From assembly GCA_040182905.1 (NCBI GenBank), contig JARQWU010000044.1, forward strand, positions 1 through 50,548: DNA of 50,548 nucleotides, read 5' to 3'. Both the position numbers and the translations under genes were made by a program. This DNA is from Barthelona sp. PAP020 (lineage: Eukaryota). The notes beneath the pieces were generated by a model that was given only the letters and a program-made list of their open reading frames with translations, searched no databases and was not told the origin of the DNA. The stretch's first letter is position 1, and each line of letters begins with the position of its first letter. This document shows, piece by piece, positions 2,863 to 49,886 of this stretch.

Positions 2863-3164
2863 CGAATAGGACTGTCCTCTCCGCTGGACAACAATGGAAC
2901 AAAAGAGTAAAAACTGAGAGGTTCCTGCAAGGAACGCTTTACCAAGTTCAATAAAGATAAAGATTTGTTATTTACGAATCACTTGAGGGGTTAATTCTCA
3001 AGTTTGGAAAGTTTTGGAAAACTTTTCGTACAAAAGAAAAATAAAAATATAAACTTTTTACAGAACTTCAACTTCATGTAAAATAAATATGTTTTGAAGA
3101 AACAAAACAAAACCATAGAGGGTTGCTTTTTTCTTTCTTTTTTTTGAAGTGCTTAACAAATGAA

Positions 3165-6100
3165 TTATTCGTCATCACTACTCTCTTCATCACTGTCATC
3201 AAGTGTGTTGAGTGTTCTCTTGTTGACATTTATCTTACGTTTTCCAGCCAATTTGAGAGCAGAGGCAAACGTTTGAGCTGTAACTTTAGGTTCATCACCA
3301 GAAACCATTTCATCAACAAGTTTTTTGGCTTTTTGTTCGGCTTTGACTGATTGCAAAGCTGATTTGAAAGCACCAATAGCATTTCCAAGTTCTTGATCCT
3401 TGTTTTCACGAGCAGACTTGATGAGGCTTTCCTTATCCGTACTTTCACCTTTAACTTTAGCAGAAAGACTGGCAGAAACCAATTTGGACACAATTCCCTT
3501 GAATTGCTTCTTAGCAGCCTTCTTTTCTCTTAATTTGGGAAGACTGTCAATCAATTCAGGAGCATGATCTTGAATGAGATTCATCAAGAAGTTGTGAAGA
3601 ATTTTGCATTGTTCTTCATCAAGATGAAGAGGAATATGTGAAGTGAAAGCTTCTTCTGTTGCCCTGATTAAAGCCAGAATTTCATTGCTATAGTCAGACT
3701 TGAATGAAGCACCCATGACTTGAGTTAAGATGCGCAATTTGGCTGTGACAATATTATAAGGATATTGTTGTGATTCAATAGCGAAGAACAACTCGGCTAG
3801 AATTTCGGAAATGAGAGGATTTCTGAGTTGATAACCCAAAAGATCTGCATCAGTCTTTGGAGCAAGTAATTTAGGGAACACATTGTCAGTATCAACATTT
3901 GTGATAGATTCAGTCAGAGCCAAAGGTTCCAACAACTTTTGAAGAATTCTCATGAATGTAATAACTTCTTCAGCAGAAAGAGGCAATGTGCTCTTACCGG
4001 CTTGAACGAATCTGGACATTAATGCCTTTTCAGCAACATCCATAACACTAGTGGGTAAGTGTTTGAGTTGGTGACGAATCTTTTCAATCTTTGAAACAGG
4101 AATGACAAAATGATCACCTTTAGTGGAATATTCATCGAAGATTTCTTGAATAGGTGCTTGAGCATCTGCTAATAATTTCTCAAATCTCTTGAGAACATTT
4201 TCTTGTAAGTATAATACACGTTTCTTTTGATGTGATTGATTCATAGATGCCAAGACATCATCATCACCACGTCCAATACCTTTACCATCAAGGTTGGAAA
4301 TGATATTGAAAAGACGTCCAGCTTCTTCAGGAGAAATCACATGTTGAGTTTCAATAGAATCAGGAGCAATGAGTCTTCTTGGAGAAGAAATGTCCTGTAA
4401 TAGAGAAATAATAACATTTGATTGATTGGAATTCAATTTGACAGAATTGTTAGAATCAGCAGCATTCTTCATTTTCATAAGAATAGCCTTTTCAATTTCA
4501 TCAAGAGAAGTATCAGGAATTGAAGAAGTAAATTTAAGAATGAATTGAATGGCACTTGGTCCAATAGAAACGGAAGAACTGATGTGAACTTCATTACGTA
4601 ATTGTTCAATGAAATCAGAAATTCCACGTGAAGCTTGATCTAACAATTTCGAAATGGTTTGACATTGTCTTAATGTGAAATTCACATCACCAGGTTGATT
4701 TGCAAAGAATCGAGCAAACATCAACTCAATAACATCAATTTCAGCTGGAGATAATTGATTAGAAACAACTGTTTCAAGCAATCTAATAATGCTACCGAAA
4801 TCTTCTTTGTCAATAGATTCAGGGATTTCCCAATGATTGGTCAATATTATTTGTTTAGCTTCATCTGAAACTGAAGAATTTCTCAAGATCTTAATCAAAG
4901 TTTGAATTTCTTGATTTGACAACATACAAGGACTCTTTTCATTGTTGGATGAAATGATCTTTTGTAATAAAGTTGTTTCTTTTTCACTGGCTTCACTCAA
5001 TTTCAATTTTTTGAATAACTCGATCAATCTTTCCAATTCATGTACTTCAAAAGTCAACAAACTATTTCTGATCAAGGAAGTGTTGAGGGATGTCAACCAT
5101 TCATCCTTTGGATCAACAGTTTCAGCCTTCTTTTCTTCAACATTATCAGTTGGTTGCATTAAAATTTCAGCCAAGACACGTTTGGTTGGATCAAAAGCTT
5201 TCATTTTAGAATTTAACACTTCAGGATCACCAGAAACTGTAATCAAATTGGCAGGTTCCTTCTCAAACATTTCGATTACTTTCTTTAAAACAACAGCTAA
5301 TCTCCAGGCTTTCTTAGCACCTAATGGGAAAGGAGCACCAGAGCTTCTTGCATTGATTATTTCAATAGTAACAGCAGCCTGTTTCGGCTTGAGATTATTA
5401 ATATGCATTCTTGCTACAACCATAGCAATACGTTCAACTTCAACAGGAGAAAGTATCACTTTTCTTTTTGCCTTTGCGTTGTCTTCAAGATGTTCAATCA
5501 TCTTGTTGATAGCAGGATCAGTAGGAAGATAAGAAGGTTTCTTTGCTTTGTGGATAAGATCTAAAACAGAATCAACATCCTTAACTTCAAGAGAAATGGT
5601 CACACCAGCGTACAATGAACGAGATAATTTTGTGATAATGTTAGCTTCTTTGGAAGTCATGATGGGAACAGGTACTCTGTTCAACAATGTAACCAAACAT
5701 TCAGCCTCCAAGGGAGACAATGTAAATACATCAGAACCCTTACTTCTCCTACCAAAATCAAGGGAGTTAGCCAATTTAACAGCCATATTATCAACTTCTT
5801 GTGCATTGGGCAAGTTTTCATCAATAACCAAATATTTGTTCAAGACACCGAGATGATTATGAGTCAAAACCAAAGGTACATTTGCATGAATAGCTTCTGC
5901 AATATCAGCGACAACACCTGTATCTTCATCAGAGAGACGATTAGGAGCAATTGTTGTCATTAATTTAGCAATTCTCTTCAGTTGTCTAGGTTGCATTTCA
6001 GCATCTTCATTGGCTTGGTACAAAGTCTTAAGACTCTTAATTAGTTCCTCATTTTGAGTGACGATTTGTTGAACTTCTTCATCATCTTCTTCTTCATCAT

Positions 6101-9100
6101 CAGAAACATTTTTGCTACCAAGATTAACAGAACCACCAACAGTGTTGAGTAAAGCAGCAACAAGAGCTCTGCTATCACGTTTGGGAACCACAGGAGCATT
6201 TCTTTCAGCCTTACGACTTGATGTTGGTCTAGAAACAGAAACCATGACATCTTCATCAGATTCTTCATCAGAAGACAAGTTCAACATGTTGTTGAATTCA
6301 TCAATGTTACCATCAATCAAATCATCTTCTTCATCCAAATCAAGCATTGGTAAATTGCCAGTTGATTCATATAATTTTCGAAGACGAGGATCACCTAATT
6401 TGTTCTTTGTTTCCTTTTCTTGTAACTTTTCATCAAGTCTCTTTCTCATGGCAGAAGCACTAGATTCACTGGATACACGATCTCTGTTAACCATAACAGC
6501 ACCAAGAGTAAGCGCTAAAGCACCAATGGCTTTAACAGCAGGATGATCTTTTGTAACAATAATTTTGTTTTCTTCTTCTTCTTTCAGTTTTTGTTCCTTG
6601 GCTTTTCTTCTGCAAATGATAATTGTAACAATGATACCAATTAAAAGAAGAGGACCACCAATACCAGCAAACCAAACCCATGTGGGAATTTGTTCTTCAA
6701 CAACAACATAAGTTCTGAGTTCCTTTCCTTCAATATTGAAGGGTCTGATTGTATTGAATTCAGTAACTTCAGTTCCAGAAGTTACATTAAGACTGACATG
6801 AAGATATCCAGTTCTATCAAAAGACAACTTGGGAGCACTGAACCAGAAACCAGCTGCAATGATTTGGAAATCACCACCTGATGAATCAAAGTTCAGAGTG
6901 TCAGAATCCAAAGTTAATTTATTGAATCCAACCTCCAACTCATTAGTTGCATTTGGTTTTTCAACACCATATTTAATAAACACGGTGGCATCATCAATGT
7001 CATTGCAACCATAGCTACCTTCGTCAGGATTCCAAACAGGAACTGAACTAGAGAAACAATAAGAAGCGCTGTTAATGGACAAAGTGTAAGAACTACTTGT
7101 AGTAATATAATTACTGTTTATCAAAGGAACTAAATTAACATAAGATCTGACATAAACAATGGACTCATATTCAAAAGGTCCCATAAATCCAGTCAAAGCT
7201 TCTTCTTCAGTAATTTTAGCAGTTGCAGTCAAAATAGAAGGACTGAAAATAGTGTTAACAGCACTATCAAGATCAGCATCTTCAATAACATTGTAAGTTT
7301 CACCAATTTCATGCAAAATGTGAACACGCTTTTCTTCATCTTTCACACATTCACTATCAGTTTCACAATTCAATAAATCGAATGAATATCTGAATGAATT
7401 AGCAAAAGTCAAAGGATCAGTAACATCAGTAACATTACTTTCAACAATGAAATCTTGAATATAAGCAGGAAGATAGTCATCTACAACAGCAGTGATGGTA
7501 ATGTTATTTTCTCCATTGGAAGAATGGAAAGGATCAGTCAAAATTGAAGGATTCGCCAAGGCAAATATTGATTTGACTGTGACTCTCATTCGGAAATATA
7601 TGTTGAAATATCCATGACTTTCAGTAACTTTCAACTTTGTAGTTTCAACCAACACAGGGAATGAACAACCACGAGCATTATAACAAATGTTACAATTTGT
7701 ATCGTTGAGATCACATGTTCCATAGTAGACATTCTTCAAACCCAACGTAAAATCATTTGTGAATGTCTTTTTTGTTTTGTAAAGAACTGTTGGATTATCT
7801 GTTAATGAATCACCAATTTGAACAACAGAGAAATAAACACTTCCGTAGTAACTGATAATAGGTGTGTTATTATGTAAATGATATGATAAAAGTGATGAAA
7901 GATCAGATCCACGACAGACTGAAAGATCCTTCAGACTGAACTTACCATAGTAAGTCAAAGAATTGCAAGAATCATTCGTAACTTTCCAAACACTAGGCAT
8001 GGGAGGATATGAACGATAATTACCACCAAGAGCTCTTTCAACAGAGGCATGTGGTGCACTAGTCTTAAAATCTTCAACAGTACCACCAATTACGGCAGAG
8101 TACAAACGATTTTCACAATTGTTAGGTTCATTGAACTTTCTAGTGACATCATATTCTTCAAAATCAAGAATAAGAGATACACCACCACGAATATAATCAT
8201 AAGAAACAGTAAAATCAAAAGCGTTTGATTCAGTGGCTTTGAAAGTTATTGCTGTATTCTTCAATTCAGCAACATCATCTGGCATCATTAAGACACCTTC
8301 ACAAGTATCAACAACAGGATCAGTGTTATAATAGAAGTCAGGACATGTTCCAGTAATTGGTTGTCCAGAACTATCAACAGTCATACAAACACCATCAGTT
8401 CCACAATAACCACAGAATGGTTTAGAAGCACAAACAGTTGGTGAAGTAATAGAGGCACAATTCGTCAAACAATCAAGACCATCAAAACCATAGTTACATT
8501 CACATTCATCAGGAACACAATAACCATGATCAATATCAATATCACCATAACCAACATGATAACCACCAGTACGAACATAAGTTAAACCAGTTTGATTCAA
8601 AACAACATCAACTAAAGGTAAGAAAAGGATACCTTGATTGATGATCTCAAGTTTGGGGAAAGACATATTGTGACTTATGGTAACAACACCAGAATTCATT
8701 CTTAAATAATCGATAGTAGGCCAATAGGTAGAATCAGTTCTGTTTTCAACAACAAAACTCAATCCACCTTGACAGAAGGATCTCCAACGAACAGAATCTT
8801 GAATTTCATAGGTAGATAATTCTCTTGAAATAACAGGACAGCTAATGGTAACATATAAAGGAACTGAAGGATTGGTAATTGTAGTGTTATCAAGAATTTT
8901 GACAGTTCCTGCAGAAATGGTGAATTCACCACCATTCAAAATGAAATTACCTTGCAATTTAACACTATCACTCTCCAAATGAATAAAACCGTTTGAAGAC
9001 TTGGTTTCTGAAGCAGAAGTGAAAACAACATCATCAGCACCAAGAGTAATATTTCCTTCATTGGTAAGTTTACCGGCATTGGTAAAATCACTTCCATCAT

Positions 9101-12100
9101 AGAATATCAATTGTGAATTTGCCTTGACAGTCATGTTGCCATAATTGGATAATGCAATGTAGTTTCCAAACAAACCATTAGTATTAACCACTAACTCACC
9201 ATAATTGACCATGCTACCAACACCTGATATGTAAATTGTGTTTGTAACTGTACAAACACTGTCTTTCAATATCGTAATTACAGAACCAGAGAGTAAATTG
9301 AAATTGCCTGCTTGCAATGAACAAGACAAACCATCAATGTTCAAATACATTCTGCTCAAAGAAACAGTACCTTCAACGGTAATGTCGCTAACAGTGAGAT
9401 TGGTTCTTGAACCACCAGTACTTTCAATTGCAGCACCTGCCTTCAAAGTCAATTTATTGACTGTTGACACCAATGAAGTGGGATAACTAATCTTACCTCC
9501 ATTGTGAATTTCAACAGTTTCCAAATCAATACCAAATGTGGGCTTCAAAGTAGATTGAAGAACCAAAGGAACAGAAGCAATAACATTAAATTGCCCACCA
9601 GTTAGTATCTTGTGTTCACTTCCAGTTAACAATAATTGTGTTGCAGATCCACCAACAGAAATCTTACCACTGATAATTGAATGTTCATCCAATTGAACCG
9701 TACCATCAGTGACAATCAATTCCCCAGAAATTTCAGAAGCAGGTAATAACAAAGATCCAGCAGTATCTTTTCTAAGAGTTCCTTCAATAAGAATCTTACC
9801 ATTGTCAGAAACACCAAATTGTGCATCAGTTTCTGTTAAAGAAATAACAGCACCAATACCAATAGCCAATTTAGCATCATCTGAAATTTTAATACCTGTG
9901 TTTCCAATGCTGCGTGTACTATTCAAAGACAATACAGCGTTGTCACTGACAAAACGAGGACCAGCACCAACCAAATTAATTTCTCCAGGTGTTTGAACTG
10001 AACTGTCACCAGTGATGTTGGTTTGAGTCCATGTGAAATTGTTGCATTGAAGAATACCTTCTCCCTTTACAATACCGTCATCCAAAAGACATTTTCCTAC
10101 TGTACCATTAGTTTTATCAGATAAAACAATAGTTCCGCTGGCTGAAAGTTGTACTTGATCAATATATGAAGTACCACCTTCAACAAATTCAAGACGACCA
10201 TTTTCTATGGTTAGAATATCGACTGGATTGTGGAAAGTTGCGTTATCAAGTGATAAAGCACCTGACTTGAAATCAAATCCTTGAGAACAGCTCATTTGAG
10301 CATCTTTGATATTCATTGTACCTTGGAGTTCAATTGGTTGAGTAACAGTAAGATCAACATGTTCACCACTGAAAACATGGAAACCACTTCCAAGAATAAG
10401 TTTACCATTGATGTTTTCAGTTCTTGTGTGAATTGAATCTCCTCCTAATGTCAAACTATGAGCAGTAAGAGTCAAATTACCATAATTATTCAGTTCATTC
10501 AAGGTAACATCACCAACAGGGTCAATATATAATTCACCATAATTGGTCATTGTTGGACAACTGCCAATAATTTCATTTTCAATGGCTCCGTTGATTGTCA
10601 AATTAGCTGAAGGATTCACAAAGATGGATGAACAATCATCTTGAATGATGTTACCATCTTTCCAAACAACATTACCGTCAATAGTGAGATTAATGTTGCT
10701 CTTCAATTCTTTGGCAACAGCACCAAAGATTTCACCAGATTTAACAACAACAGATCCATATCCAGTCATATAGCCTTCATTACCCCAATCAAGTTTGTTT
10801 AAAGTCAATAAATCATCAGATTTAATAACACCATAAGTGGCATTCAAATAATCAATGGTTGTATTACCATAATTGGTAACTTGTGAGCTACTGCCAATCA
10901 AAGTGACATTTTGTGCAACAATAACAGCACCTTCACTTACTTCAATTCCGGAGTTCTCATGAATATTAATATTGTTCACAATATAAGTATATGTACTTCC
11001 ATCTGTGGGTCTCATAAACTTGGCAACACCAGATTTAACATCCAACAAAGCACTTGGCATACCAAAAGGCACATCAAGAATCAAGTCAGAATTGTCTTCA
11101 ACAACAAGTCCATTGGAACATCTGAAATCAGACAAAGTAATTTTGGTCAAAGTCTTTCTTACAATACCAGTACAATCTCCATTTATAGTTCCAGTACCAA
11201 CAAGTCTACCACCATCAAAAATAATATCACCTGATGTTTCAATTTCACCATTAACGGTTAAATATCCACCATTGAGAGTGACTGTAGACAACTTAGTCTT
11301 ATTCTCAGCATAAACATAACCATTGTTGAGAATAAGTTCTTTGAAAGTAGCAGGATTATTGCTGATTGGTTCAGGATAAATAGTTAAACTACCAGAATTA
11401 ATGACAAGAGAGATAGTATCAGCAACAATCTTTGAATCATCATGTTCTAAAGTCACGGTTCCATCATCAACCTTAATTTCTTTGACAGTTAATTGTCCCT
11501 TGATATTTAATATGGTATTTTCACCATCAACAGAAATAATACCATTGCCATCACCTAAGACATCTGAGAACAAATCATGAGAACCACCAGAATAACGCAG
11601 TTCACCACCATTGTTCAATCTTAATTCACCAGATGATAAATCAGATAAAGTTTCAAAAGCAACAATACCACCAGCAATATCAATTATACCGTTATTGGAA
11701 ATACCACCAAGAGTAGTGGTACCAGCAACAACTTTCTTCAAAAGACCTTCATTGATGAACCCAAAATGTCCTGCATTAGATGTGAAAGATGAATCACTCA
11801 ACAACTCAAAAGTTCCATAATTGATGAAAGATCCAGTGGTAGCTTGAATGTCACCTTGTCTCCAATAACAATTTCCATAACTGATGAAAGATAAACCTTC
11901 AAGAACAACACCTTCTTCACTCAAAGTAATATCCAGTGTGGTTTGAACAGTAACATTTGCACCAATGGAAAGATATCCACCATTCCAAACGAAATTATCA
12001 GCGAAAATTTGTCCAACACCCTGAACTTGACCTCCAACAAGAGTCATGCTTCCCTTGACATCAAAGTCATCAGAAAGACCAAGAATACCATTGGCAACAC

Positions 12101-15100
12101 GAATGGAACCAATAGTTTGATTGACGCTAGAGGGATCATCTTCAAAAGTGACAGTACCTCCATTGATTTCAAAGTAAGGATCAGTGGCAGTACAATCAAT
12201 AAATGAAGAAGTAACATAAACTGAACCACTTTGAACAACAACATCAGTATCAATGGAACTACAATTAGCGAACTCAACAATAGATGAAGACAAATAAGGA
12301 TTGAGTGTTATGTTGTAGAAATGAGCATCTTCGAAGATGAACTTACCATTTGGAATGAATACAGTACTATCATTACCATTGAGTGAACCCTTAATGGTTG
12401 CTTCATCTGTAAATGTCAATGAGCCACTAGTAATATTCACATTAGAACCACTATAACCATAGAAATTGGAAAGAATGCAACTACCACTTGTGACTAATGT
12501 TCCTTTGAGAATGAAACAATGAGAAGCATCAACTACCAATTCAAAATCATCCCCAGAATTAACAATACCTTGAGAACGAACTTCAATAGATGAACTGGAC
12601 ATCACAATAAATTTGTTACCAGGTAAATTTAAAGTACCATTGACATAGAAAATAGGGCCATCCAAAGTGTTACTGCTAATTGTTGCAACAGCATTGTCTA
12701 AAACGTATATTTTCAGAGCAATATCCAAAGATATGTATTGTTCATAGTTGTTGTTCACATAAATTATTGAATTTTCAGGCAATTCAAATAATACAGCACT
12801 TGCTATTTGAAGGTTATCAATTGTTAATGTAATTGGATTATAATCAGCAAATTGTACTCTACCGCCATTGAAAGTCCAACTCTTTGCAGTCACAGTTCCA
12901 GTAGGTAAGGTTAAAATACCAGCATTTACAGTAATTTGACTGGAAATGTTAGTTGATTCAACAACAACACGTGCTAAAGTATCATTAAGAACAAAACCTA
13001 ATTCAGGATTAAGAAGACTGATTTCACCAGAAATAGTGATATCAGCTTCATAAACACTGACCAAACCATTTCCAAACAGATTGACATTGTTATCAAATAG
13101 AAGGTTAGAAGCACTAGTATCAATACGTAATTCACAAGAAGTGTTTACTTCAATGTTTCCTGATAATAAAACATTACTTTCGAGAATCAAAAGTCCAGAT
13201 TTGCATGACATACCATTATTAATCGTGAATCCCCATTCCAAATGTGTTTCATAAGAACCATCAACAATAACAGTACCATCAACAATAATTTCATTAGAAG
13301 ATCCGTACAAGGTTTGAACAGTAGGATGAGCAAACTTCAAAGAAGCAGCTTCACGAATATAAATTGTCGCTGTGCCATCAGAAATGATGACACCATCTTC
13401 AATGGCAAATACACCTTCATGCATGTTCAAAACTGGATTCAATTTCAAATTGATTGAACCAGTCAATGTAAAATCTTGTGTAATATTCAAAGTAGCAGCA
13501 GACAATACACCATTAGTCCATTCAAGACTCTTGGTGTGAATAAAACCATCTCCTGAGATTTTACCACCATTCATTGTTAATAAATTACCAATGTAAAGTG
13601 GTTCTTTCACCTCAATGATACCATTCATTATTTGTAAGTTGTTATCAATAACAAGAGATGCGTCTAATGTTTCAACTTCAGCAGTAGCACCAAGCATGTT
13701 AATAGATCCAATATGATACACATTTCCATCAGAACGATCTTCAAATTTGATGGTACCACCGGATAATGAAACAGCACCAGGACAACTCATAGTGTTTCCA
13801 AACCAAAGAATACCTCCTTTGAGATTAAGTCCAATTGAAGAAGATAATCCTAATGCACCTTCAATGTAAAGATATCCACTCTCCAAAATGACGGTACCAG
13901 TTCCACTCAATGAACCTTCAGTTGTAATATTATGATTATAAGCAGGAAGCACTAATTCAGCATCACCATTGATGGTAATGTTACCAGAAGATATGGTGCT
14001 TGTTGCAAAAACTATATCACCATTAGAGCAATTGAAAGTGTTTGTGTTGTTCAAACTCCACAACAAAGTGAATTTACGGGCAACATCCATAGTAAATTTA
14101 CCGTTATTTTCAAGATAACAATCTGAAGATATATCACAACCAAAAGTGAATGTTGAAGCACCAGAGCTGAACAATATTTCTCCAGAAGGATGAACAATCA
14201 TATTTGCGATCATGTTTGGTGGTACAGTAATATCACCAATGAGGGGTGTAAAGTATCCATAAACATTGATTGTAATATTGTCTTCAAAACGCAAATTACC
14301 TTGAACTTTCATATTGCCTTGAATATCTAAGATAACATCATCTTTAATTCTACCACCTTTCCAAAGAAGGAGAGTTTCAACATTTAAAGTTTTGTTTCCT
14401 TTAATTGTAATACCAGAAATATCACCATTGACAATATTGATATCATTTGTAAGTTCCAAAACACCACCTTGTGAATTGAATTGAGTTACGTTGACTTTGT
14501 GATAAGGAATAATTGTACCTTCACGAAGTAAAATTTCAGCAACGGAATAAGGTGAAATATCAGCTCTAAGTTCAAATGTTAACACTGCATCCGTATGTTT
14601 CAAAGCAAGGGGAGTATCCACATCTGCTTTCAATTCAAAAGCATTAGCACATCTTAAAGTACCATCCAAAATGGTAGCTGTAGCACCACTTTCCAACCAT
14701 AAAGGTAATGAAACCAAAACTGAAGCTTTACCTTCGACAGTAAATGTGAAGGCTCCTTTAATATAACTAGAACCAGTGACTTCACCACCAACAAGTTCCA
14801 ATTTAGTTGAAACATAAAGAGGTTCTTGAATTGTTGCAACACCAGATGTAATACGGAAGTTTGAGGTATAAAGAGGAGCAAAAACGTTCAAGTTACCACC
14901 ACTGACATAGACTGTATTAATGGAGCAACTTGAATATTGAGGCAATGTAGTGTTTAAAATACCATCAACATATACAGGTAAATTGGAAGAAACACTACCA
15001 TAATCAGTGATCAACAATTCACCAGCAAGAGAAACATTGAATGTTTTTCCAGTGGCCATTCTGATGGGAGATTTCAAATAGAAAACATCATTGACAGTAA

Positions 15101-36100: not shown

Positions 36101-39100
36101 CGCTGGGTAACTGAATAATACCACCTTGTGAATTCAAATTGGCGATATCTGCTTGATCTTCAATAACCAAAGTACCAGAAGTAATGTTAACTGATTGCCA
36201 AGTCATTCCAGATATAGCTGGAATTACAACAGTACCACCAGAAATCATTAAAATTGAATTTGAACCAACCCAATTAAAGGTTAAATCAGAATCGAAATCA
36301 ATTGAACCACCAGATACATCAAAATCACCATCAAAGTTAATTGTATTTTTGAAAGACAAATCTCCAGATGTCTTAAACGTAGCGTCTGGTGAAATAGTAA
36401 CATCACAGTCAGCAATAATATGCTCACCAAAACCTGTAGCCAATTCCAAAGAACCGAAATGAAGAATATCCAAAGATTGATACCATCTCGTATTACCAGA
36501 CATCTGAACAAGCAAATTAACATTTTCTGTTGAATTTGAAATTATTGTTCCATTGAAATTGTAATAATTAACAGCAATATTTACTGAATAATCAATAAAT
36601 TCAAAACAACCATAATTATAAATACCCATAGCTGAATCAGTATTGTCATTTGTGGCCCAAGTAACGGGAGACACAACAACAGCACCAGTATGATATGCAA
36701 CAGCATTTGCAGAAATGATCAATCTGGCTCCATTATAGAAAGTAAATGTGGGATTCTCATAGGGCATGTAAGATTGGACCAAAATGGCTTTGTCATATAG
36801 ATAAGTGTTACCCGAAGATACACTTAATACACCATCAAATATAACAGCACCAGTACCCTTAAATGTCATTGTATTTGAAATGAAAGTAACATTTGAGTTA
36901 ATGGTGATATTATTATTATTGGATAAAACACCACCTGTGAAAGTCATGTTATCACTTAAAACATAATTATGATCATGGAAATCAATCAAAGCACTCGAAT
37001 CAACCAAAACAAAACCTAATTTTTCAATTGAAGCACCAGCAACCCATGCTAATTTATAATCATCAGATTCATCAGGATTTTCATAAGACATAAAATGAAC
37101 TTCATGCGTTGTCCAAATTCGCAAATACTCTGAGTACCAATTACCGTAAATATACATTGTATTTTTAGCTACAATTTGTCCATAATTCAAAATATTACCA
37201 TAAGAATAAGTAGTACTTCCAATATACACAATAGATCCAGAATGAACATGGAAATCATTAACGTTTATGAATGTATATACAAATTTAACAATTCTATTGT
37301 TCTTAACATTGATTGTGCCTTCATTTCTGACATTGCCAACTGAAAATTCGTCTTGAGAAAGAATACCATCAAAATCAATGGTACCCTTATTGATCATAAA
37401 CGTAGAAGAATAAAAAACGTAATAATATCCACCAACTTTCAAATCAACAGACGCTGTAGCACCAGATTCAATAATCATGTCAGCATAACCGTAAAGATAA
37501 CCAGATGTATGATTCCAAAAAGTTGAAACAGAAAGCTGAGTGTGGAAATAAAGCGGTGCAGTATCATCCAAATTGGTATAAAGATTATTAATCAAAATGT
37601 TGCTAGGTCCATATATTGTATGACTGTGTGTGGCATTGTATGCATCAACAGTAAAAGGAGAAATAGCATAAACAGATCCAGAATACACTTCCAAGTAACT
37701 AATTTCAAATGAAGATTCAATCTTTAATTGTGCTGTTCCAGAAAGATAGACTTTTGGAAGGGAAGCAGAACGGCTAAAATGGAATATAGCAGAACCATCA
37801 CATAACATGAAGGGGTTGCTGTCAACCAAAATAGAAGCAGAATCAAAAATGTAGATATTGTTGCTATAAAGAATGTGAACATCATACAACATATCAATAA
37901 CACCATTCAACGTGGTTTCATCATCAAAATAAATTAAATTATCATGCATTATATGACTGGTAGTTGTATGAGTAAATTCAACATGGTTGTACTTTAAAAC
38001 ACAACTGTATTCATTATTCAACATTGTAACGTCCTGTAACTCAATATAGGTAATAAAGAAATCATTTGAAGTTACATTACAGAAAACATAAGATGAATCA
38101 CTCAAAGAACCTTTCAAATCGGTTGATACACCTCCTTTAATAGTTCCTGTTCCATAAATTGTAGAATTAGTAACATCAAACATCACAGCAATGTTTCCTT
38201 GAACATTAAGTTCTGCTTTTTTACCCCTAAGATAAAAGGTTCCATCATCATTAAGGAAATATGCTCCATTTTGTACATACATATAAGATTCTCTTAAAAC
38301 AATGGATGCTCCTTCTTTTCCACGAACATAGGAATTTACATAGAAGAAAGCCTCACCTGTAAAGTGAACAGCTAAAGTTTCAATGTAGAAATCATAACTT
38401 GTTGATCCAGAATTCATTTTGAAATAATCTGTAAAAATAGCACCAGTACCACTCAAATGACTGTCACAATAAAGATCAACAGTGATATTGTGGGCAAAAT
38501 TGATAATAGAATCAGTTGCAAAGGTACCACCTCTGAAATACAAATTATTAACAGTGGTATTAACACCATAGAAATCAATAAGACCTTGTTCCAATCTAAG
38601 TTCAAAATCTAAAGTGGCTGCTGCAGAAATAAATAATGCAGTACCATACAAATTGGCTTGGAAAATATATGTGTGCAAATCATTTGAATCAAAATGAACA
38701 AATGAATCATCAACAATGATTCTTGAATTTGAACCTTCCAAATTAATTGTACCTTTCACAACAAAAGGCACTGTGTAACTGTGAGATCCATCCATATCAA
38801 AAATAACTTGACCATATCCAGAAATAGAGGCTCCAGAATCAATTAAACCGTATTTAAAATTAACAATATTTGAATCAGCAATCAAAATACTTGATCCGCT
38901 TGGCATATTAAATTCATTGTTGAAATAGATTCTGTCTGAAGTCAAATCAAAATCAACAACACCACCATTTTCGAGAGTAAATTGTGAATACATCCACAAT
39001 GTTTTACTATTTTGAGTGAAAATGACTTTACCATACAAATCCCAATGAGAAGTGGTATCTCCACTTGTTTGATAATTCCTGAAAGAATCATGAATTACCA

Positions 39101-42100
39101 ACAAAGCACCAAATTGAATATTAAACCAACTATCATAAGAATACATGCGATTGTATGCCATCGAAAAATTACCAGCAACATCAATCTTAATGTTCTCAAA
39201 ATATGGACTTCCATAAATTTCGATGAATTTATTTGTGGGAATACTGACAGTACAACGCTCACTACTGGTACCTTTAAGCAAACCATTTTGGAAATTAAAA
39301 TAATTGTCAATAGTCAACACTTTATCTTCCGAAACAGTAAGTACAGCGGCAGTAGCAAGAACGTCCAAAATATCAACAGTTGCTAAACTTTGAACATTCA
39401 TTTGATAATACAATTTGACATGTGGACGAACATTGTAATCTTCTAAAATATTCAATTCACCATACACTTCCAATAAAGCATCAATATTGGTCCATGTTTC
39501 AGAATACAAATCAAGAACACCAGTGGAATAAACTCGAACATTGATATCTTCTTTAATTTGTCCCTTGAAAGAAGAAGCAGACTTCATGTATAACCAACCA
39601 GTTCCTTTAACAATTGAGGAAGAACTGAAGATAACATCACCACTTGTAAATGTTACAGCAACACCACCAGAAAATACAACAGTACCATCAAAAACAGCAC
39701 CTTTTCTGAATTCAATAGTGTCAAAAACATTCAATGTTGCACCAGATGCTAAAAAGAATGGAATTTCAAAAATAGTTGGATTAGCAACAGCTAATGTACC
39801 ATAGACATTAAATGTTGACACAATAATGTATGGATCTGATGATGTAACCCTTAAAGTACTGGTAAAAGTATAAGTTTCTCCAAGGGGAACAATCATAGTG
39901 GATTCAAAGAATGAAACAACAGATGCAGTAATGAAACCAGAATTCAAATAAAGAGTAGAATTGCGGAAATTAGCATTGTTTGATATGGTTGTACCTGTCA
40001 AACTCAATTGAGAATTTTCAATTTCACCGCCTTTGATATCACCGGTAGTTAAAGACAAACCAGAAGTACCTTGAATTAAACCACCTTCAAAAATAAAATC
40101 TCCGTCTAATTGATTAATATCAGCTGTACCAGTGAATATATTACCACTTTTGAAAGAAAATGTTTCCAAAGAACTGAAACTGTAACCAGAAAACAAATAT
40201 AATTCTGAAGTACTTGTCATTTGGAAAACACCAACACCAGTGATCAAATTGTACAATTGAATTGAACCACTTGAGAAGTATATGTTAGAATCAATATCAA
40301 TAACACCATCAACTCTCAAAGAATTAACCATTTGAATATAAAAGCTGTTGTATACATATAAATATCCTGAACTTGCAATACTACCTCTGTTATAAAGATA
40401 GGTAGAACCTTCAGAATTGTTAAACATGGCACTTGATTCAATTTTTAAATCCCAACTTATTTTTAAAGAACTAGACAAATACTTAAATACTGAACCTTGA
40501 ATATCAAACACACATGTATCAGTAGAATCCGAAAAGACAATTGAACCGTTGAGATGTAATGTGCCTGTTGATTGAACAACCAATTTGGCATCATTTTTAC
40601 CAATAATTTCAACATTAGTCATGATAAGACCTTCATCACTGATCAAAAGATTGAATGAATCCAAAATAATTTGCAAATTGTCTTCAATTGTGAACTTCGG
40701 TGATGTCAAATAACCAGTATCAACAAAACTGGCACCATTTGAAATAATTAATTGGTCAGTAACAGTAAAAACACCTTTTCCCATTAATTCTCCATTACTA
40801 AACGATAATTTTTCAACAACAATATCATAACAATGATAATGTATGGAACCACCACTGATAGTAAGATGTGAATCAACAGGAGGGAAAGAACGCAAATCAA
40901 GTGTACCAGAATTAACATATGTGACAGGTCCGAATCCAACAATAGTTGCAGTTTCCTCAAACAAAACAAAACCTCCATCCTGAATAAATTGACCTGAAAT
41001 ATAATTAATGTCAGTCACATTCATAAAATAGACAGAAGCTCCTTTACAATGAGTTAAACCTTTTGAATTATAGTTACCAGTGATAAATCTCTGAATTCCT
41101 TCATAATAGTATGCTCTGCCTTGAGTTTCAACAACAAAATCAGAATAAGACCAAAAATCTTCATAGAAAGATAAAATACCTCTGGTGATATTCATCCATT
41201 TGTTGTTGACAATCTGAATTGCAACTTCAAATTCTATATTGATGAGATCATTGTGAATAATAAACTCACCATCATTATTAATTTGAGATGGAATTCCAGA
41301 TGCATGTTCTATTCTTGAATTTGCAGCAAGAGCAATGGTTGTTTTACAGGTTTCAGTTAATTCTAATGTAAAGGCATCAGTAGTAATCACATGTCCTTCA
41401 ATATAATTAAACTCTTCACTGACAAATATTGTTCTTTCAGAAAAATTCTTTATAGCACTGGTTGTGAAAGTCATATTGTCAACATGGATAACACCAGAAC
41501 CAATGAAAGATCCACTTTCAAAAAGTAATCCTTCCTTAATATCAATAAAACCATCACCACCAACAACACCAGTTCCATTAACAATAATACCCATATCAAT
41601 GGATGTAACATTGTTGAAAACATGGGTACCACCAGAAACAAAAATAGGATTCACAAATGTAACAGAATTAGCAAATAAAGAACCTCCACCTTGCATACTA
41701 ATATCATCAGAGAACAATACTACAGGTCTACAAACCAAAGTACCCCCCAAAATGGTAACAGTAGTAGCGAATTCAAACATATCATCACCAGTTAATTCCA
41801 ACGAAGATGTTGTGCCGTCGACAAAAATATCTCCAACTTGGAAAACAACATCATCTTGGATTTCAACCGTAGCACTACCATTGACAATCATTTTTGAAGT
41901 TCCTTCCATATACAAGGCAGAACCGGCATTCATGATAACAGAACCACTTGTGGACATAACATTACCTTCACCAGTAACATTGCAACGATCGGACATGGTG
42001 AAACCAACACCACCACCCAAATCTATTGAAGCTGATAAAGCAACTGAAAAGTTACCAACACACCAACCACCACCATCAAGCTCAAGAATACCATCTTGAA

Positions 42101-45100
42101 CATCAGTAATACCTTCAGTATGATAATACCATTCCAAGGTAGTTGTCGTTGCGCCCAATTTCAAAACTGAATTGGTGTTGGTTAATTCAGGTCTAATACC
42201 ATCATCATTCCAAAATTTCATGGTACCACCTGGATTAAATGTCAACGTACCATTAGCTATGTTGATAACAGCTGCTTGATTTCCATAAACATCACCTTCC
42301 ACATATTGAAGATCACCATTTACAGAAATTGCACGTTCACTAATAAATTTATCATCAGGTCCTAAAATATATGAATCAGTGGCCAAAGAAAGGTAATTGC
42401 CACCAGCAATTGTACCACCATACCAATAAAATTCTCCTTCTACTGAAGTAGAACCATCACCAGTAAATGTACCACCACTGATGTTCAATTTCAAAGTAAT
42501 AGTTGTGGCAGCTTCTAATTGACTCAAACCAGAAAGAATTGTAAAAGTATCCAAAACATCAACATCAGAGTCGGAAACAAAGTCACCACCATCAACTAAA
42601 ATATTATTTGCAATACATGGATAACCATGGAAATTACACATACCACCAGAAACATTTAGCAAAATACCAATGTTAGTCAATTGCAAACCTGGTTCAAAAT
42701 AGGCGTCACCACCTTCTATCACAGTATAACCACTGACATTATATCCACAGGTAAAATGTACAGACGCGCCAGAAGAAACCAACAAAGTACCCTCACCAAA
42801 AATAGTGGCAGCAGGGTAGAACTTTTGAAGAGGTCCTGATAAGACAAACTCAGCACCAGCAGAAATGTTAACAACACCATAAGCATCAATACCTTGGAGT
42901 AAAACAATTCTACCTTCTTCAACATTGATAGTACCAGAATGTGAAAAGAAAACTTCAAACTCAGCTTGACCAGAAGATTTCTTGACAATTTTACCTGCAT
43001 TTTCGATAGAAGCCAAATCACCAACATTGTCATAAAGCATGGAACCACCAGGTTGTAAAATCAATGAGGATTCACCCAAATTCTTAAACAATGATCCTTG
43101 ACGTGCAATAATATCACCACCATGCCAACGACATTCCTTATTGTTGAAAAATTCTTTAATTTCCAAGTACTTATCAACGGCACCGGGATAAATATCAACA
43201 GAACCATCAGTCAAAATACGACCAATACCTTGAAGACTACCACCATACCAAGAGAATAAACCACCAACAGAAACCTGAGAATTGTCAATAACTTGACCAG
43301 CAAACAAATCGAAAACACCAACAATTGAAAGAGAACGAAGAATCGTAAATTCAATACCAGGTGTATTGAGGAAAAGATTATTGATAGTAATCAAAGCATT
43401 AAAAGTTATGGAACCATCATAAGCAGTGACATTTGTAAATTCAAAATCACATCGATTGATGGTTAAATTACCTGAATTGAAAATAACGTTTTCACCAGGA
43501 TTCAGCATGCTTACAGTTGATTCAATCAATACAACTGAATTGGTAATAGTTGTCATCAATGTTGAATTGAAAGAAGTATATTCAAAAACAGCATCAACAT
43601 CTGTGAAATTCAAATAACCAATAACCAATAATTCAGAACCAAAACCAAATGTAGCCTCATTAATGAAGGTCAAGTTGGCATCAATGTAAGATTTAATAGA
43701 GGAGGAACAAGTCAAGAATACATCAAATGTGACATCACCTTCATACAATTCAATAGGTGAATTAGCTGCAAAAGTAATACCGCTGAAATCCAATGAACCA
43801 TTTCCATATTTGTGTAATTGAGAAGATAAAGTTAACTTGGGTATTGTGGCACCACAAGTAATCATTGAAAATTCAACATCACTTTCAACACTGATGTTTA
43901 AGAAAGATGATGGAGTAATCAAAAACTCAGCTGCACAATACAATTGAATATTTGAAGAATTCCAATTGACGTCTCCTTTCAACTCAAAAACAGTGCTATC
44001 AATTCTTAAACCTTCATCAAAAATATTTAACGTATCAAATACAACAAAGGTACCAACACTACTAATGTAAGCATTTCTAAAGTCTGCTTTATAAAGATTA
44101 AAAATACCAGCACCAATAAACTTAACATTATGACCAACCAAAATGTAATCAGAAACAACTAATTTAGTGTTAAGATTGGCATCAAGAATTGAATAACCAG
44201 TATCACCTTCTATGATCATAGTTTTAACTGTGTATGTAATTGGACTGCCAGAATCGGTCTTAAATCTATTGGTAGAAGCAGTGATATTCATCAAAGTTAA
44301 GACTTTGAAAGTATTCCAATAAATAACAGTAGAACCTTCCATATAGTATGAATCAACATTAATAACTCCATGGAAATTCACATTTGTACAATCATAGAGA
44401 TACAAATCAGTTTCAATCGTTAAAGTTGACCTAATGTCAATAATAGAACTATGGGCTGTAATTTTAGTAATATTAAATGTTTCTGATGCAGGCAAATATA
44501 ATATTGAATCTGTAAGTTCCAAATATTCACCCATGGAGTTAATTGTAGCATCCTCAATGAAAGTAACGTTACCATTTTCAACAATAACATTGCCTAAAAG
44601 ATTTACCAAAGAACCCTCTTTGAAAATAAAATCTTGATGTTGCAAAACCAAATCACCAACCCCTTTAATATCACTCAAAAATTCAAAGTTAGTGTCGGTG
44701 GAATTTAAAACCAAAGTAGAATTCGCATCAATGTAAATAGAACCAGAGTTAACAAGATAATGTAAATCTGTTTCACCAGTGTTGGGATTTAAATTGAATA
44801 AACCTCCCAAATTAATGGTTAAAAGTACAGGTAATTCCATGTCATTTGTGGCATTCTTATACAAATTACCTTTGTTGACCAAAAGCAAATTGTAGCCGTT
44901 TGTGGTAAAGAAATTAGTTTGAGTATCCATTATGATGTGGAAAGATGCATCAGCACCAATAGTCCAAGTAGCGGTTCTCAAAAGCTCCAATTTAGCCACA
45001 TTGATCAAATATACATTACTAACAAATTTAAGAGTAACATCAAATTGTAATGTCTCAATAGTATCAATAAAGAACTCATCAACAACCAACAAAGCACCAT

Positions 45101-48100
45101 TTAATTCAGATTTAACCTTACCATTCACAAAATAGTAATTGTAAACAATTAATTCATTGGATAACAAATATAACAAACCATCATTCATGTATAAATCTTG
45201 AATAGAACCTGAACAATCAACCTTAAAGGTAGACGTAGTAGAATTCAAAGTAACATTGCCACTGACTGCAACTGTTAAATCGCTTCTAAACTCAGAACTG
45301 TCTTTCAGTGTGATATTCCCGATAACACCTTGTTGCAAACGTAGTTTACAAAATTCTAACACAGCTTCATCAACAGTTAAAATTGAACCAGCATCTGTTA
45401 ACGAAAAAGTAACACCAGCAGAAGTACCAGTACAGTTAAGATATTTAACATTCAATTCATGATAGGAAATAGAGGCAGTATTTGTAACTTCAACCGAATC
45501 CAAAGTAGCAGTACCAATGAATAAGGTACCTCCAGTTTGGGTAACAGTATTAACAAAGACTTCTCCTTCAACAGTAAAAATACCTTGACTTATGACAATG
45601 TCTGGACCGTAGTAATCATTTGAAACAATGATAGTACCCCCACAAAATTCAATTTCATCAACAACTAAATTAGCATAAACTTTCAAAATACCACCACAAG
45701 AACGAAGTTTATGAATGGTGGCATCTTTTTTCACGGTTAATGTGGAACCCCACATTTCCATTGTATCCTTAACTGTCAAATCATATTGAACATAATGAGA
45801 GCCTGAATTTTTAACAGTCAAATTTTGATGAACTACAACAGATCCAACTGATAATGAACCTCCAAAAACATCAAAATTAGTAACATTTAAGGTGCTATAT
45901 GGATCATGATCCAAAGAAGATGTTTCATTAACCTTAATATAGGAAGCATTGAAAAAACCATTCATTTCAACAAGAGAATTGGACATCAACAATAAATTTC
46001 CGCCATAAGTGTTAATCTTCATGTTATCAGGGAATGTCACATCAGCATCATCAAACATGATGAAATCACCATAGGCATTCACTTGAGAAAGAGTACCGAA
46101 TCTCAAATAAGGATCGACTTCAATAGCCAGTTGGAAGAAATCTAATTTGAGTGTACCAAATATATTGATAACACAACTTGCACATTGAGCAGCACCTTCC
46201 ATAATAAATAAACCTTCATAAATACCAACAGTACCTTCAAAAGTTGAATAACTCGCAAAAACATGTCTAATTGTACCATTACCATATTTTTCCAAAACAG
46301 CTCCAGAACTGAAAGTCATTTCACAACGGTATTCATTATCAAGAATAACTCCAGAATTTCCTGTAACATTATAATGCCATAAAGTACTTGTTCTAACATA
46401 CATTTTAGAAGATAACCAACATTTCACATAATCCTCAGATCTAAACAAAAATTTCGTGTTTGTTTGCATATCTAAATGTCTACCAGCAAGCTCTTTTCCA
46501 CTTGCACTTCCGGTATCATCAGAATGAACATTAAAATTTCCATATAGATAAATTGTTGGCTTAACAATAGCAATATTGTCTCCAAGATCAGGTCTTATAC
46601 CAGAAATTCTTCCAGAATACCAATCAATTTTATCCATAATTCTTACGTTACCTCTACCTCCAAAATCAGAACCTCTTAAAATCAAATGATCAATTTGAAT
46701 GGTTGCATTATTGTCAAATAGAGCATCATTGGACATGTTTAAATAGGCAATAGAAACAACAGAATCAGCAGATATGGAAACAATGGACCTTTCCATTGTA
46801 ATATTTTCAGCAGTTAAAACAGCTGATGTATCAACGAATACACCATAATTTGTTGACCAAACGGTGGCAGATCCCGTATCCGGGAAATACATCAAAGTAA
46901 CTTCAGTTTGTCCAATAATTTCAAACAAACCCTTTTCGTAATACAATTCATCCAGATATAAAATGACAGCTGTAGATTCAGCGACGGTAAAAACAGAAGT
47001 GTCTTCCAATAGTTTAACAGTTCCAAGATTAGTTTGAAAATCAACAACAACTGTTGCATCTTTGATAAGTAAAATTGTATATTGATAGTCATTCAATTCA
47101 AGACAATTAAATGTATAAATACCACCATTAAAGGTCATATAATGGAAAAAAGATCTGGCACCTCCAATATAAGTCCAGCCAATTTCATCAGAAGTAACAT
47201 TAACACCTTTTGCAAATACAATTTGGTCCATATGATCTTCAACAGCTATAAATTTACCTCCATCAATGGTACCAGAACCTCCAAATAATACTTGTTGATC
47301 ACCAGTAACATTGATACTGTGAATATCTAAATATGAAGCTATCTCAATCGAATGATTGGCAATTATATCTAAATGAAAGGCCTCAATGTTTGTTGCTGAA
47401 GTAGATGTTGAACCAAGAACAATACTGGCAAATTCAGCATCAATTATGAAACTACAAGAGGTGTCAATGTCAATCGGATTTGTGTCAAGAGATATGACTT
47501 TATTTGTAGCATCAGCAACATCTGTTGGCTTAATCAAAAAGGTAGTGTATGATATGACCCTGGTGACATCAACAAAAATATGATTGGTATATTGAGGAAT
47601 AATGTTAAAATTGTTCACCAACAAGGAACCAACACCAGTAATCTTACCCCAAGTCATGTTGAAAGTGTCTACATTCAAAGTACTTTCAAGATAAACATAA
47701 CCACCATTTACCAAATTATATTGTCCAACTGTGGCAGAATCAAAAGTAATTTTACCACCATTTTGCTCAACAGTTGTAATCTCAAGTGAAAAAGGGTATT
47801 TAAAAGCCCCAATCGACCACGTTGTCACATTGAGCGTGTCAACTATTAACTTTGAAGTGGAAGAACTAAAGGCAACGCTAGAATCAAGAATTAAATTTCT
47901 AACATGATAGTCAGTGTTATCATCACCAGCAAGAGTAGCAGAAGTAAGACTAGAGGGCAAACCTCTTAATTCTAAGTGACTAATGACATCAAAATCAAAA
48001 ATATCCATTGAAACCATAGCAAATTGGGCTAATTTCAAAGTGCCTTCGGTAATTGAGGAAGTAGTCAACTCAGTATTAAAAAATTTGATAAAACTGAATG

Positions 48101-49223: not shown

Positions 49224-49886
49224 ATGGGTTATTCCAGTAGAAGTGTTGGTGCGAAAGTTGGAAAAGCAACTTCAAGTGTTAAAGATGAAGTTAAAAGAAG
49301 TAATAGACTGAAAAAATTGACCGAACAAGTTTATGATTTGTCGAAGGACAAATATCTTCAAAAAAATCATTTGGGTGGTTTTGAATGTCGATTATGTGGA
49401 ACAAAGCACAGAAATGAAGCTAACTATATTGCACACACTCAAGGGCAGAGACATCAAAATGCTTTAAAGAGGCAGATGGCATATATTCAAAGAAAGAATT
49501 TGCAGAAAATTGGTTCTACTCCTGTAAAACAAAGTTTAAATAAACCAAAAATTCAAAAATCTTTAAATACAATTGGGATGCCTGCGTTTAAATTTTTGCC
49601 ATCATACTGTCCTGATACATTGCGCAGAACTATTCAATTTGAAATCAGTTATACAAATATCAATACCAATATTAGTCCATCCCATCGATTTGTCTCTAGT
49701 TATGAACAAGATATTGAAGAAACTAATGATATGTTTCAATACGTTGTATTCGCTGGAAGACCTTATGACAATATTGGATTTAGAATACCAAATGTTCCTA
49801 TTGATAAAAATGGTGATTGCTACTGGTTCAATTGGGATAAGGAAGACAAACTATATACATTATTTGTTACATTATGTGATGGATAA
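49224..49886 (+). CDS. SF3A2: Splicing factor 3A subunit 2 (SF3a66/SAP62/Prp11), U2 snRNP
   Basis: KDKYLQKNHLGGFECRLCGTKHRNEANYIAHTQGQRHQ (matrin/U1C-type zinc finger; cf. KNHLGSYECKLC...HTQGKKH), IGMPAFK, PSHRFVSSYEQ and QYVVFAGRPYDNIGFRIP are colinear with the SF3A2 core. Confidence 0.96.
   Translation: MGYSSRSVGAKVGKATSSVKDEVKRSNRLKKLTEQVYDLSKDKYLQKNHLGGFECRLCGTKHRNEANYIAHTQGQRHQNALKRQMAYIQRKNLQKIGSTPVKQSLNKPKIQKSLNTIGMPAFKFLPSYCPDTLRRTIQFEISYTNINTNISPSHRFVSSYEQDIEETNDMFQYVVFAGRPYDNIGFRIPNVPIDKNGDCYWFNWDKEDKLYTLFVTLCDG

Follow-up and report, generated by a model that had tools for sequence, protein, structure and literature searches.

Fibrocystin (PKHD1) combines one transmembrane (TM) helix with two G8 and beta-helix regions, a PA14 domain and an N-terminal half that holds a tandem series of IPT/TIG repeats, and the fungal Hyr/Iff-like (Hil) adhesins carry a beta-helix on a glycosylphosphatidylinositol-anchored stalk. 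FRAS1 and FREM2 are giant type I membrane proteins whose long ectodomain is built of repeats. Furin sheds them (PMC2855323), and they take part in anchoring cords, which are described as hard to see by routine transmission electron microscopy (TEM) (PMC10095167). In zona pellucida (ZP) proteins, cleavage frees the last strand and leads to polymerisation, with endoglin and betaglycan given as non-polymerising (PMC7737619); the canonical ZP module is described as metazoan, choanoflagellates having ZP-like sequences only (PMC13361971). Here, a stretch of 50,548 nt from the anaerobic bacterivorous barthelonid flagellate Barthelona sp. PAP020 (Metamonada), now named Parabarthelona vacuolata (PMC13087550), was analysed (assembly GCA_040182905.1, contig JARQWU010000044.1, positions 1–50,548, forward strand; hereafter the window). 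Its minus strand holds one uninterrupted 45.8-kb gene for a protein of 15,270 amino acids (aa). The favoured prediction (probability roughly 0.55) is that this protein forms sparse rods that are tethered to the cell, adhere to prey or substrate and connect through their tail to the cytoskeleton.

The window protein shares with FREM2 and FRAS1 the type I topology and the long repeat ectodomain, and the membrane-proximal 'unique' region of FREM2 is homologous to its aa 13700–14070; the homology to the Fraser complex rests on FREM2 sequences. It is, however, about five times longer than FREM2. In Pfam scans, PF16184, PF03160 and PF19309 marked 17/17 FREM2 sequences and were absent from the window protein, which thus lacks CSPG/cadherin-like, Calx-beta and Frem_N domains; its stalk is a predicted beta-solenoid, it has no furin site, and its tail is long and helical. 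With the ZP modules of endoglin, betaglycan, uromodulin and ZP2/ZP3, the likeness lies in the predicted fold: the last domain, just before the TM helix, best matches ZP-C and is preceded by another beta-sandwich, whereas identity in the structural alignments is only 8–12%, the cysteines are non-canonical, and neither a Zona_pellucida Pfam match nor a cleavage site is present. The same ~240-aa repeat unit is found in proteins from Crocosphaera (WP_012358621.1) and Bradyrhizobium (WP_247991991.1) and in a metagenomic protein (P0005) that also has the N-terminal start motif of the window protein; these combine 4–7 units with cadherin, Calx-beta or Ig domains, whereas the window protein has at least 37 units and, in addition, EGF-like and PSI-like parts, a ZP-like base and a TM helix leading to a cytoplasmic tail. 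One repeat unit matches, weakly and at the profile level, the beta-helix effector domain of the Hil adhesins, where a single helix of ~9 rungs is described (10.1101/2022.02.09.479577), in contrast to several hundred predicted rungs here.

Fibrocystin had been named by the original prediction as the nearest analogue of an otherwise unrecognised architecture. The comparison is a loose one. It extends to the single TM helix and to two G8-like starts, each followed by a predicted beta-helix; these G8 matches are, however, incomplete and sub-threshold, base and tail differ, and when Pfam was run on four overlapping segments spanning the whole protein (E up to 1), IPT/TIG gave no match; no PKHD1 sequence was among the matches of any search. 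The bacterial-type repeat homology and the FREM2-related base with its predicted ZP-C-like domain had been overlooked. The giant would work like an adhesin, yet by domain tests it lies outside the fibrocystin, FRAS1/FREM and canonical ZP families.

The gene, its transcripts and the layout of its product

The minus-strand frame of 15,270 codons runs from ATG at 48977 to TAA at 3165 without an internal stop, the predicted mass being 1,666,789 Da (1.667 MDa). Across the same span, the remaining five frames contain 761–1,925 stops, and the composition-based probability of so long an open frame is ~1e-503. Along the gene, GC content at codon positions 1, 2 and 3 (GC1/2/3) hardly varies (GC3 0.21–0.24, and 0.31 in the final 270 codons), and the neighbouring SF3A2 gene has an equal GC3 of 0.21. 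No 20-mer occurs twice inside the open reading frame (ORF), and its sole tandem-repeat row is 40 nt with 1.9 copies, so that a repeat-driven misjoin is unlikely; the DNA gives no sign of misjoin or contamination, and the ORF is real. Only two hydrophobic 19-mers exceed a score of 1.78, namely 14103–14121 (2.52) and 13–31 (2.16); one TM helix, a signal-peptide-like N-terminus and a 1,148-aa tail were therefore assigned from hydropathy. The size, topology and continuity claimed by the original prediction (~1.65 MDa, signal peptide, one TM helix, ~1,150-aa tail) were thereby confirmed, the signal peptide as a signal-peptide-like stretch.

When the tail was searched against proteins of 2,010–5,000 aa, a single match among 3,049 candidates was obtained, a transcriptome protein of Barthelona sp. 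PAP020, whose cluster consists of two EukProt Trinity proteins with this label. They correspond to residues 10250–15132 and 10250–15219, with one substitution and no gaps, and hence at least 14.9 kb of the giant gene is transcribed without introns. The frame is lost in the last 10 and 2 residues, respectively; the longer of these aberrant ends matches nearby sequence on the other strand and looks like an assembly fold-back. The features of the gene are as follows.

3165..48977, minus strand: whole ORF, predicted type I membrane protein of 15,270 aa (from frame, hydropathy and composition)
48897..48977, minus strand: signal-peptide-like N-terminus, aa 1 to ~27; residues 13–31 hydrophobic, cleavage site placed by eye
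31428..48896, minus strand: predicted solenoid arm 1, aa 28–5850, with a G8-like start motif (aa 52–89) and degenerate ~240-aa units
33798..34460, minus strand: insert in arm 1 of PA14-like appearance, aa ~4840–5060, with weak repeat-profile matches
~31400–35500, minus strand: Tyr/His-rich stretch of arm 1, aa 4500–5850
31227..31409, minus strand: two EGF-like domains between the arms, aa 5857–5917
8628..31220, minus strand: predicted solenoid arm 2, aa 5920–13450, with a second G8-like start motif (aa 5941–6004)
20628..21353, minus strand: LamG/concanavalin-A-like domain within one repeat unit, aa 9209–9450
8328..8528, minus strand: EGF-like and PSI-like cysteine-rich linker, aa ~13484–13550
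6708..8315, minus strand: FREM2-related module, aa 13555–14090, three predicted beta-sandwich domains, no polybasic cleavage site
6717–7247, minus strand: ZP-C-like last domain of the base, aa ~13911–14087, from the predicted structure
6612..6671, minus strand: single TM helix, aa 14103–14122, followed by RRK
3168..6611, minus strand: cytoplasmic tail, aa 14123–15270, an acidic low-complexity stretch and then a predicted alpha-helical region
3321..18230, minus strand: stretch covered gap-free by the transcriptome-derived protein P0003, aa 10250–15219, 1 substitution in 4,970 aa

The repeat ectodomain

About 12,900 residues consist of at least 37 degenerate ~240-aa units common to giant bacterial surface proteins, and self-comparison of the window protein gave diverged repeats only, mostly at 20–30% identity. 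The repeat profile was seeded on P0005, a Gly/Thr-rich metagenomic protein of bacterial type. After self-training, 39 units were found along the ectodomain; in a controlled rerun there were 37, versus 1 after reversal and 0 after local shuffling of the sequence, and a profile built from relatives only marked 37 stretches of the ectodomain versus 4 weak ones (reversed) and 0 (locally shuffled). Strong units were found by the repeat profile in the Crocosphaera Calx-beta protein (6) and in the Bradyrhizobium cadherin-domain protein (4). Against plasmids, P0005 matched 4 of 72,556 records, with proteins annotated as cadherin-, Calx-beta- or Ig-domain or as hypothetical, whereas tblastn with the window repeat gave no match there; the function of the bacterial proteins is taken from annotation only.

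Autocorrelation of hydrophobicity peaked at lags 6–8 (z 8–11), 13 (z 6) and 19–21 (z 3–4), and that of Gly at lag 19 (z ~7); a hydrophobic period of 6–7 together with a Gly period of 19–20 fits a three-stranded coil of ~19–20 residues. Hyphal_reg_CWP was matched by 1 of 18 repeat units (E=3e-4), a weak lead to the fold, and the Atlas search gave the Hyphal_reg_CWP family at 0.89 for the repeat; for this domain, a beta-helix resembling those of bacterial adhesins has been predicted (10.1101/2022.02.09.479577). Searches of PDB sequences with aa 11401–15270, aa 3801–7800, segments A2, A3 and A4 and both inserts gave nothing significant, and NCBIfam gave nothing above cut-off. The repeats would fold as a right-handed three-sheet beta-helix, as the repeat units and beta-helix-type periodicity suggest, in line with the solenoid reading of the original prediction. 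Since a beta-helix rises by 0.48 nm per rung, ~12,900 residues at 19–25 per rung give an estimate of 248–326 nm, and a rod of about 250–330 nm would result, in agreement with the ~250–300 nm proposed before.

The two G8 matches, spanning positions 7–43 and 2–64 of the 124 of the profile, are sub-threshold; because both pieces (aa 52–89 and 5941–6004) align with the N-terminal motif of P0005, they are read as the putative starts of the two arms. That arm 2 arose from arm 1 by duplication of the whole block was not supported, three weak local matches being all that was found. Between the arms, aa 5857–5917 matched EGF_2 above cut-off (E=1.6e-4) and EGF_TEN below its cut-off (E=3.9e-5), and this EGF pair probably forms a flexible hinge. 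In arm 2, the repeat profile stops at 9208 and restarts at 9451, on either side of the LamG-like insert. The linker at aa ~13484–13550 matched EGF_Teneurin (E=0.034), and the stretch of a Pharyngomonas protein (P0013) aligned to it matched PSI (E=0.0028). The insert at aa ~4840–5060 had no Pfam match and no meaningful PDB match; by eye we took it to be PA14-like, a label that no search backed, and PA14 itself was weakly matched by one solenoid unit (E=0.081). The stretch aa 4500–5850 fits the repeat profile poorly and contains 8.8% Tyr and 3.0% His, compared with 3.4–4.9% and 1.2–1.8% elsewhere; this Tyr/His-rich distal end of arm 1 is a candidate ligand-binding surface.

Relatives of the solenoid were obtained with aa 1860–2350 as query, which gave 2 matches among 7,991 candidates, a Skoliomonas GEM-RC1 protein and P0005. 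The Skoliomonas cluster comprises at least 3 gene models (P0004, P0006, P0007) with mutual identities of 86–92%, which looks like a recent expansion of related giants in this genome. The longest model (P0006) has a signal-like segment at its start and aligns collinearly to aa 1669–2807 at 29% identity; at ~980–1290 it carries a ~300-aa cysteine-rich insert that does not align to the window protein.

The membrane-proximal base and the cytoplasmic tail

The ~540 residues adjoining the membrane (aa 13555–14098) belong to a family without a Pfam model. An unindexed search with aa 13480–14130 matched 23 proteins, from which P0029, matching the TM stretch only, was removed ahead of alignment. Besides metamonads, the family includes a Pharyngomonas kirbyi protein (Discoba) and metagenomic proteins; a hydrophobic anchor follows the module in 15/22 non-self matches, and some relatives have C-type lectin, DUF11, PSI or thrombospondin domains ahead of it. 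In the series P0009–P0028, from Pharyngomonas and metagenomes, the module is the core of anchored proteins of ~500–1,000 aa. When the family profile was run against proteins of 1,809–5,000 aa, 18 of 7,979 candidates matched, namely the transcript protein and 17 vertebrate FREM2 (best FREM2 match E=2.8e-17). With the window sequence left out, the profile still found the window protein (E=1.5e-45) and 17/17 FREM2 (E 8e-16 to 7e-9), and hhalign of the base family with FREM2 gave 98% probability (E=1.4e-13) over 297 columns, at FREM2 residues 2678–3028. These FREM2 residues correspond to what is called the 'unique' domain in FRAS1/FREM2 (PMC10095167); judged by these profiles, the base is homologous to it in FREM2 at the family level, linked through the family profile. 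In a quick module tree, whose inputs were imperfectly trimmed and included one almost whole FREM2, the three giants grouped with a support of 93 and FREM2 with 100; the branches are long, and the direction of transfer is not indicated. In a vertebrate FREM2 (P0033), the region ~2680–3130 is laid out like a ZP protein, with two presumed sandwich domains, then one or more basic cleavage sites and a short hydrophobic strand, followed by the TM helix.

Within the barthelonids, Barthelona PCE1_003235 (P0008) is collinear with aa 11800–14866, across the TM helix into the tail, and base and tail are, on sequence comparison, conserved in this second barthelonid, Barthelona PCE. In Skoliomonas, GEMRC1_012889 has a solenoid, EGF, the same membrane-proximal module and a TM helix, but a different, short tail. 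As the gene models of the relatives are pieces of 1,069–4,545 aa, full-length orthologues of the giant in Barthelona PCE and Skoliomonas are suggested rather than seen. Locus searches with P0005 (genome contigs), P0021 (viral and metagenome contigs) and P0014 (metagenome contigs) yielded no confirmed relative.

A single-sequence AlphaFold model of aa 13480–14100 reached a predicted local distance difference test (pLDDT) of 30, and AlphaFold2 with a 22-row alignment gave a base of three beta-sandwich domains. Compared with 48,161 chains, domain 3 was closest to ZP-C of ZP2 (Z 9.1), betaglycan (8.8) and uromodulin (8.3), the best unrelated chain scoring 8.1; in a second structural comparison, endoglin ZP (Z 10.5, root-mean-square deviation (rmsd) 3.2, 124 residues aligned), betaglycan ZP-C (10.2 and 9.4) and uromodulin (8.5) preceded the best unrelated chain (7.7). 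The top 3 rows of the wide search and the top 4 of the second comparison were thus ZP-C or ZP modules (Z 8.3–10.5). Foldseek with the three-domain model returned generic Ig-like rows only, with TM-scores <0.2. ZP-N domains are marked by an E'FG extension and a signature Tyr. Domain 2, also a beta-sandwich, could be aligned with the ZP-N region of uromodulin only inside whole-module alignments. The canonical eight ZP cysteines, of which 4 belong to ZP-N and 4 or more to ZP-C, are missing: domain 3 has two family-wide cysteines (13974, 13991), and domain 2 of the window protein keeps Cys13871 and lacks the conserved cysteine at ~13839. The modelled base is consequently called ZP-like and not a canonical ZP module.

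The motif R-x-K/R-R does not occur in aa 1–14100 of the window protein, and its last loop is also free of a dibasic site. ZP modules have a consensus cleavage site with the external hydrophobic patch behind it. A basic site before the TM helix was found in 0/3 barthelonid/skoliomonad giants versus 4/4 FREM2 examined (strict R-x-K/R-R in 3), and among the short relatives, 6/12 carry a dibasic site ahead of the final strand and the anchor (strict in 1); in FREM2 and the short relatives, the site sits between the last conserved strand and the hydrophobic strand before the anchor. FREM2 may be an unrecognised ZP-type protein. Because the furin site of FREM2 is lacking, the protist giant probably stays tethered to the membrane. 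An alternative, in which the base self-assembles after non-furin cleavage or in the membrane-bound state and gives filaments or a mesh displaying the solenoids as branches, much as bacteria-binding sites are presented by uromodulin filaments, is improbable: domains 2 and 3 do align over ~210 residues with uromodulin ZP-N and ZP-C (6tqk, model 214–517 to 322–576; rmsd 34, owing to differing domain orientation), their linker of ~20 residues is near the 22–26 of polymerising modules (PMC7737619), and dibasic sites exist in half of the short relatives, but such a site is absent from the window protein and its two closest relatives, the two conserved cysteines of domain 3 do not make up a canonical set, and the best structural matches, endoglin and betaglycan, are those given as non-polymerising.

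The tail shows alpha-helical (100-degree) periodicity after its acidic low-complexity part and is 28% identical to the Barthelona PCE tail over 238 aa (E=9e-28). It had no Pfam match above cut-off, no PDB match and no usable Atlas match; no kinase, cyclase, GAP or other catalytic/signalling domain was found in the Pfam, NCBIfam, PDB and Atlas searches, and the tail has no NPxY motif. Two candidates seen by eye were not upheld: an IQGAP/RasGAP-like tail, to which Pfam scans gave no support, and a ~44-aa unit at 15 places, which failed cross-validation against the tail of PCE (5.8 bits vs a shuffled maximum of 7.8); an earlier 3-unit profile had scored 19.5 vs 3.1, though its units align directly to PCE. 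On the sole basis that catalytic domains were not found, the tail may be a scaffold coupled to the cortical or flagellar cytoskeleton. It could instead belong to a long-range mechanosensory or contact receptor comparable to fibrocystin or teneurins, the rod sensing prey or flow and the 1,148 aa signalling inwards, and the size of the tail, its conservation across two barthelonid genera and the teneurin-type EGF matches agree with this; such a receptor is nevertheless unlikely, given the missing signalling domains and NPxY motif and the short (~200 aa), different-looking tail of the Skoliomonas relative P0011.

Proposed function and genomic setting

PAP020 cells take up food through a long cytopharynx, and the posterior flagellum serves for attachment. 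The adhesin or tether role put forward by the original prediction would remain the likeliest. In the adhesive-rod reading, the single 15,270-residue chain would project from the cell as a slender beta-helical rod, ~250–330 nm long, and bind bacteria or substrate. The FREM2-related, ZP-like base, without furin cleavage, would keep the rod on the membrane, the two arms would move about the flexible EGF hinge, and the solenoid faces together with the LamG insert may bind glycans. A location on the posterior flagellum or in the groove/cytopharynx is proposed, where the helical tail would couple the rod to the cortical or flagellar cytoskeleton.

Several observations weigh against this reading or its parts. 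Transcript evidence is confined to aa 10250–15219, residues 1–10249 lying outside its coverage. For the solenoid, the recognition score of the Atlas search was low (1672 vs 2300), the solenoid profile found nothing significant in the PDB (best E=0.034), the G8 matches are partial and below the Pfam cut-off (17 and 14.1 bits vs 22.9), and Laminin_G_3 at aa 9209–9450 (E=0.0028) is below cut-off as well. For the base, the mean pLDDT of the model is 67, unrelated folds follow near behind the ZP matches (Z 7.7–8.1), and a reciprocal FREM2-only profile did not match the window protein (best relative E=0.033), this profile probably being weak since its 17 sequences are mutually close. In the TEM description of PAP020, the flagella carry no appendages and 'no extracellular structures' are recorded (PMC13087550). 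This speaks against a dense coat; sparse thin rods could escape notice in stained sections.

The same TEM description, with the unusually large fluid-filled vacuoles and the long cytopharynx of the species, fits an internal or stage-specific lining of cytopharynx, food vacuole or cyst coat, in which the giant would be a spacer or protective brush and not an adhesin. In favour of a lining, the ectodomain has 183 N-glycosylation sequons, but enrichment was rejected (shuffled mean 197, standard deviation 12), and the bacterial proteins with the same repeat are surface proteins of cadherin, Calx-beta or Ig type, so that we consider a lining quite unlikely. An assembly chimera, or expression as separate shorter products, is very unlikely: although the transcript-derived proteins begin at Met10250 and are labelled complete and the relatives' models are short pieces, the frame is stop-free over 45.8 kb with flat codon composition and no repeated 20-mer, the transcript proteins have off-frame ends of which one resembles a fold-back, and Met10250 lies inside a repeat unit without a signal peptide, the sole signal-like segment being aa 13–31.

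The start codon of the giant gene lies 246 nt from an uninterrupted SF3A2 (Prp11) splicing-factor gene (window 49224–49886, plus strand), the two being arranged head-to-head; given this arrangement, both probably share a short bidirectional promoter. At the other end of the window, a dispersed repeat of 36–42 nt occurs in both orientations (318–353, 1632–1681 and 1961–2002; arms 89–95% complementary) beside a 20-nt tandem pair (1921–1962), possibly as the ends of a small mobile element, and a Gln/Pro/Asn-rich low-complexity ORF without a Pfam match is located at 489 to ~1490 (minus strand; likely start ATG near 1487).

Taken together, a tentative history, to which we give somewhat less than even odds, would be that a ZP-like module far older than animals survives, unrecognised, as the 'unique' region of FRAS1/FREM2, and that barthelonids fused it to a bacterial-type solenoid as a ~300-nm prey-catching rod. 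If true, Fraser-complex anchoring cords would be ZP-type polymers, the FRAS1/FREM2 region having the cleavage site and the final hydrophobic strand, and the giant would be among the longest single-chain membrane adhesins. In the literature searched, no statement of a link between FREM2/FRAS1 and ZP was found, which AlphaFold DB or InterPro may already record, and no described giant beta-helix protist adhesin, though the supplementary gene tables of PMC11316075 might list the giant gene; on giant proteins, titin and PKZILLA only were found.

The draft genome of this protist is given as 13.2 Mb (PMC11316075, Table 1), of which the giant gene takes up ~0.35%, and a relative with a 10.2-Mb genome retains at least its C-terminal part. 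That so much of a small genome is spent on one gene, and that it is kept in the smaller one, suggests that feeding or attachment depends on it. The unnamed base family of Metamonada and Discoba, which connects with FREM2 and, in its predicted fold, with ZP-C, would extend ZP-like modules beyond holozoans, and it would offer a testable mechanism for the formation of anchoring cords by furin-shed FRAS1/FREM2 in the biology of Fraser syndrome.

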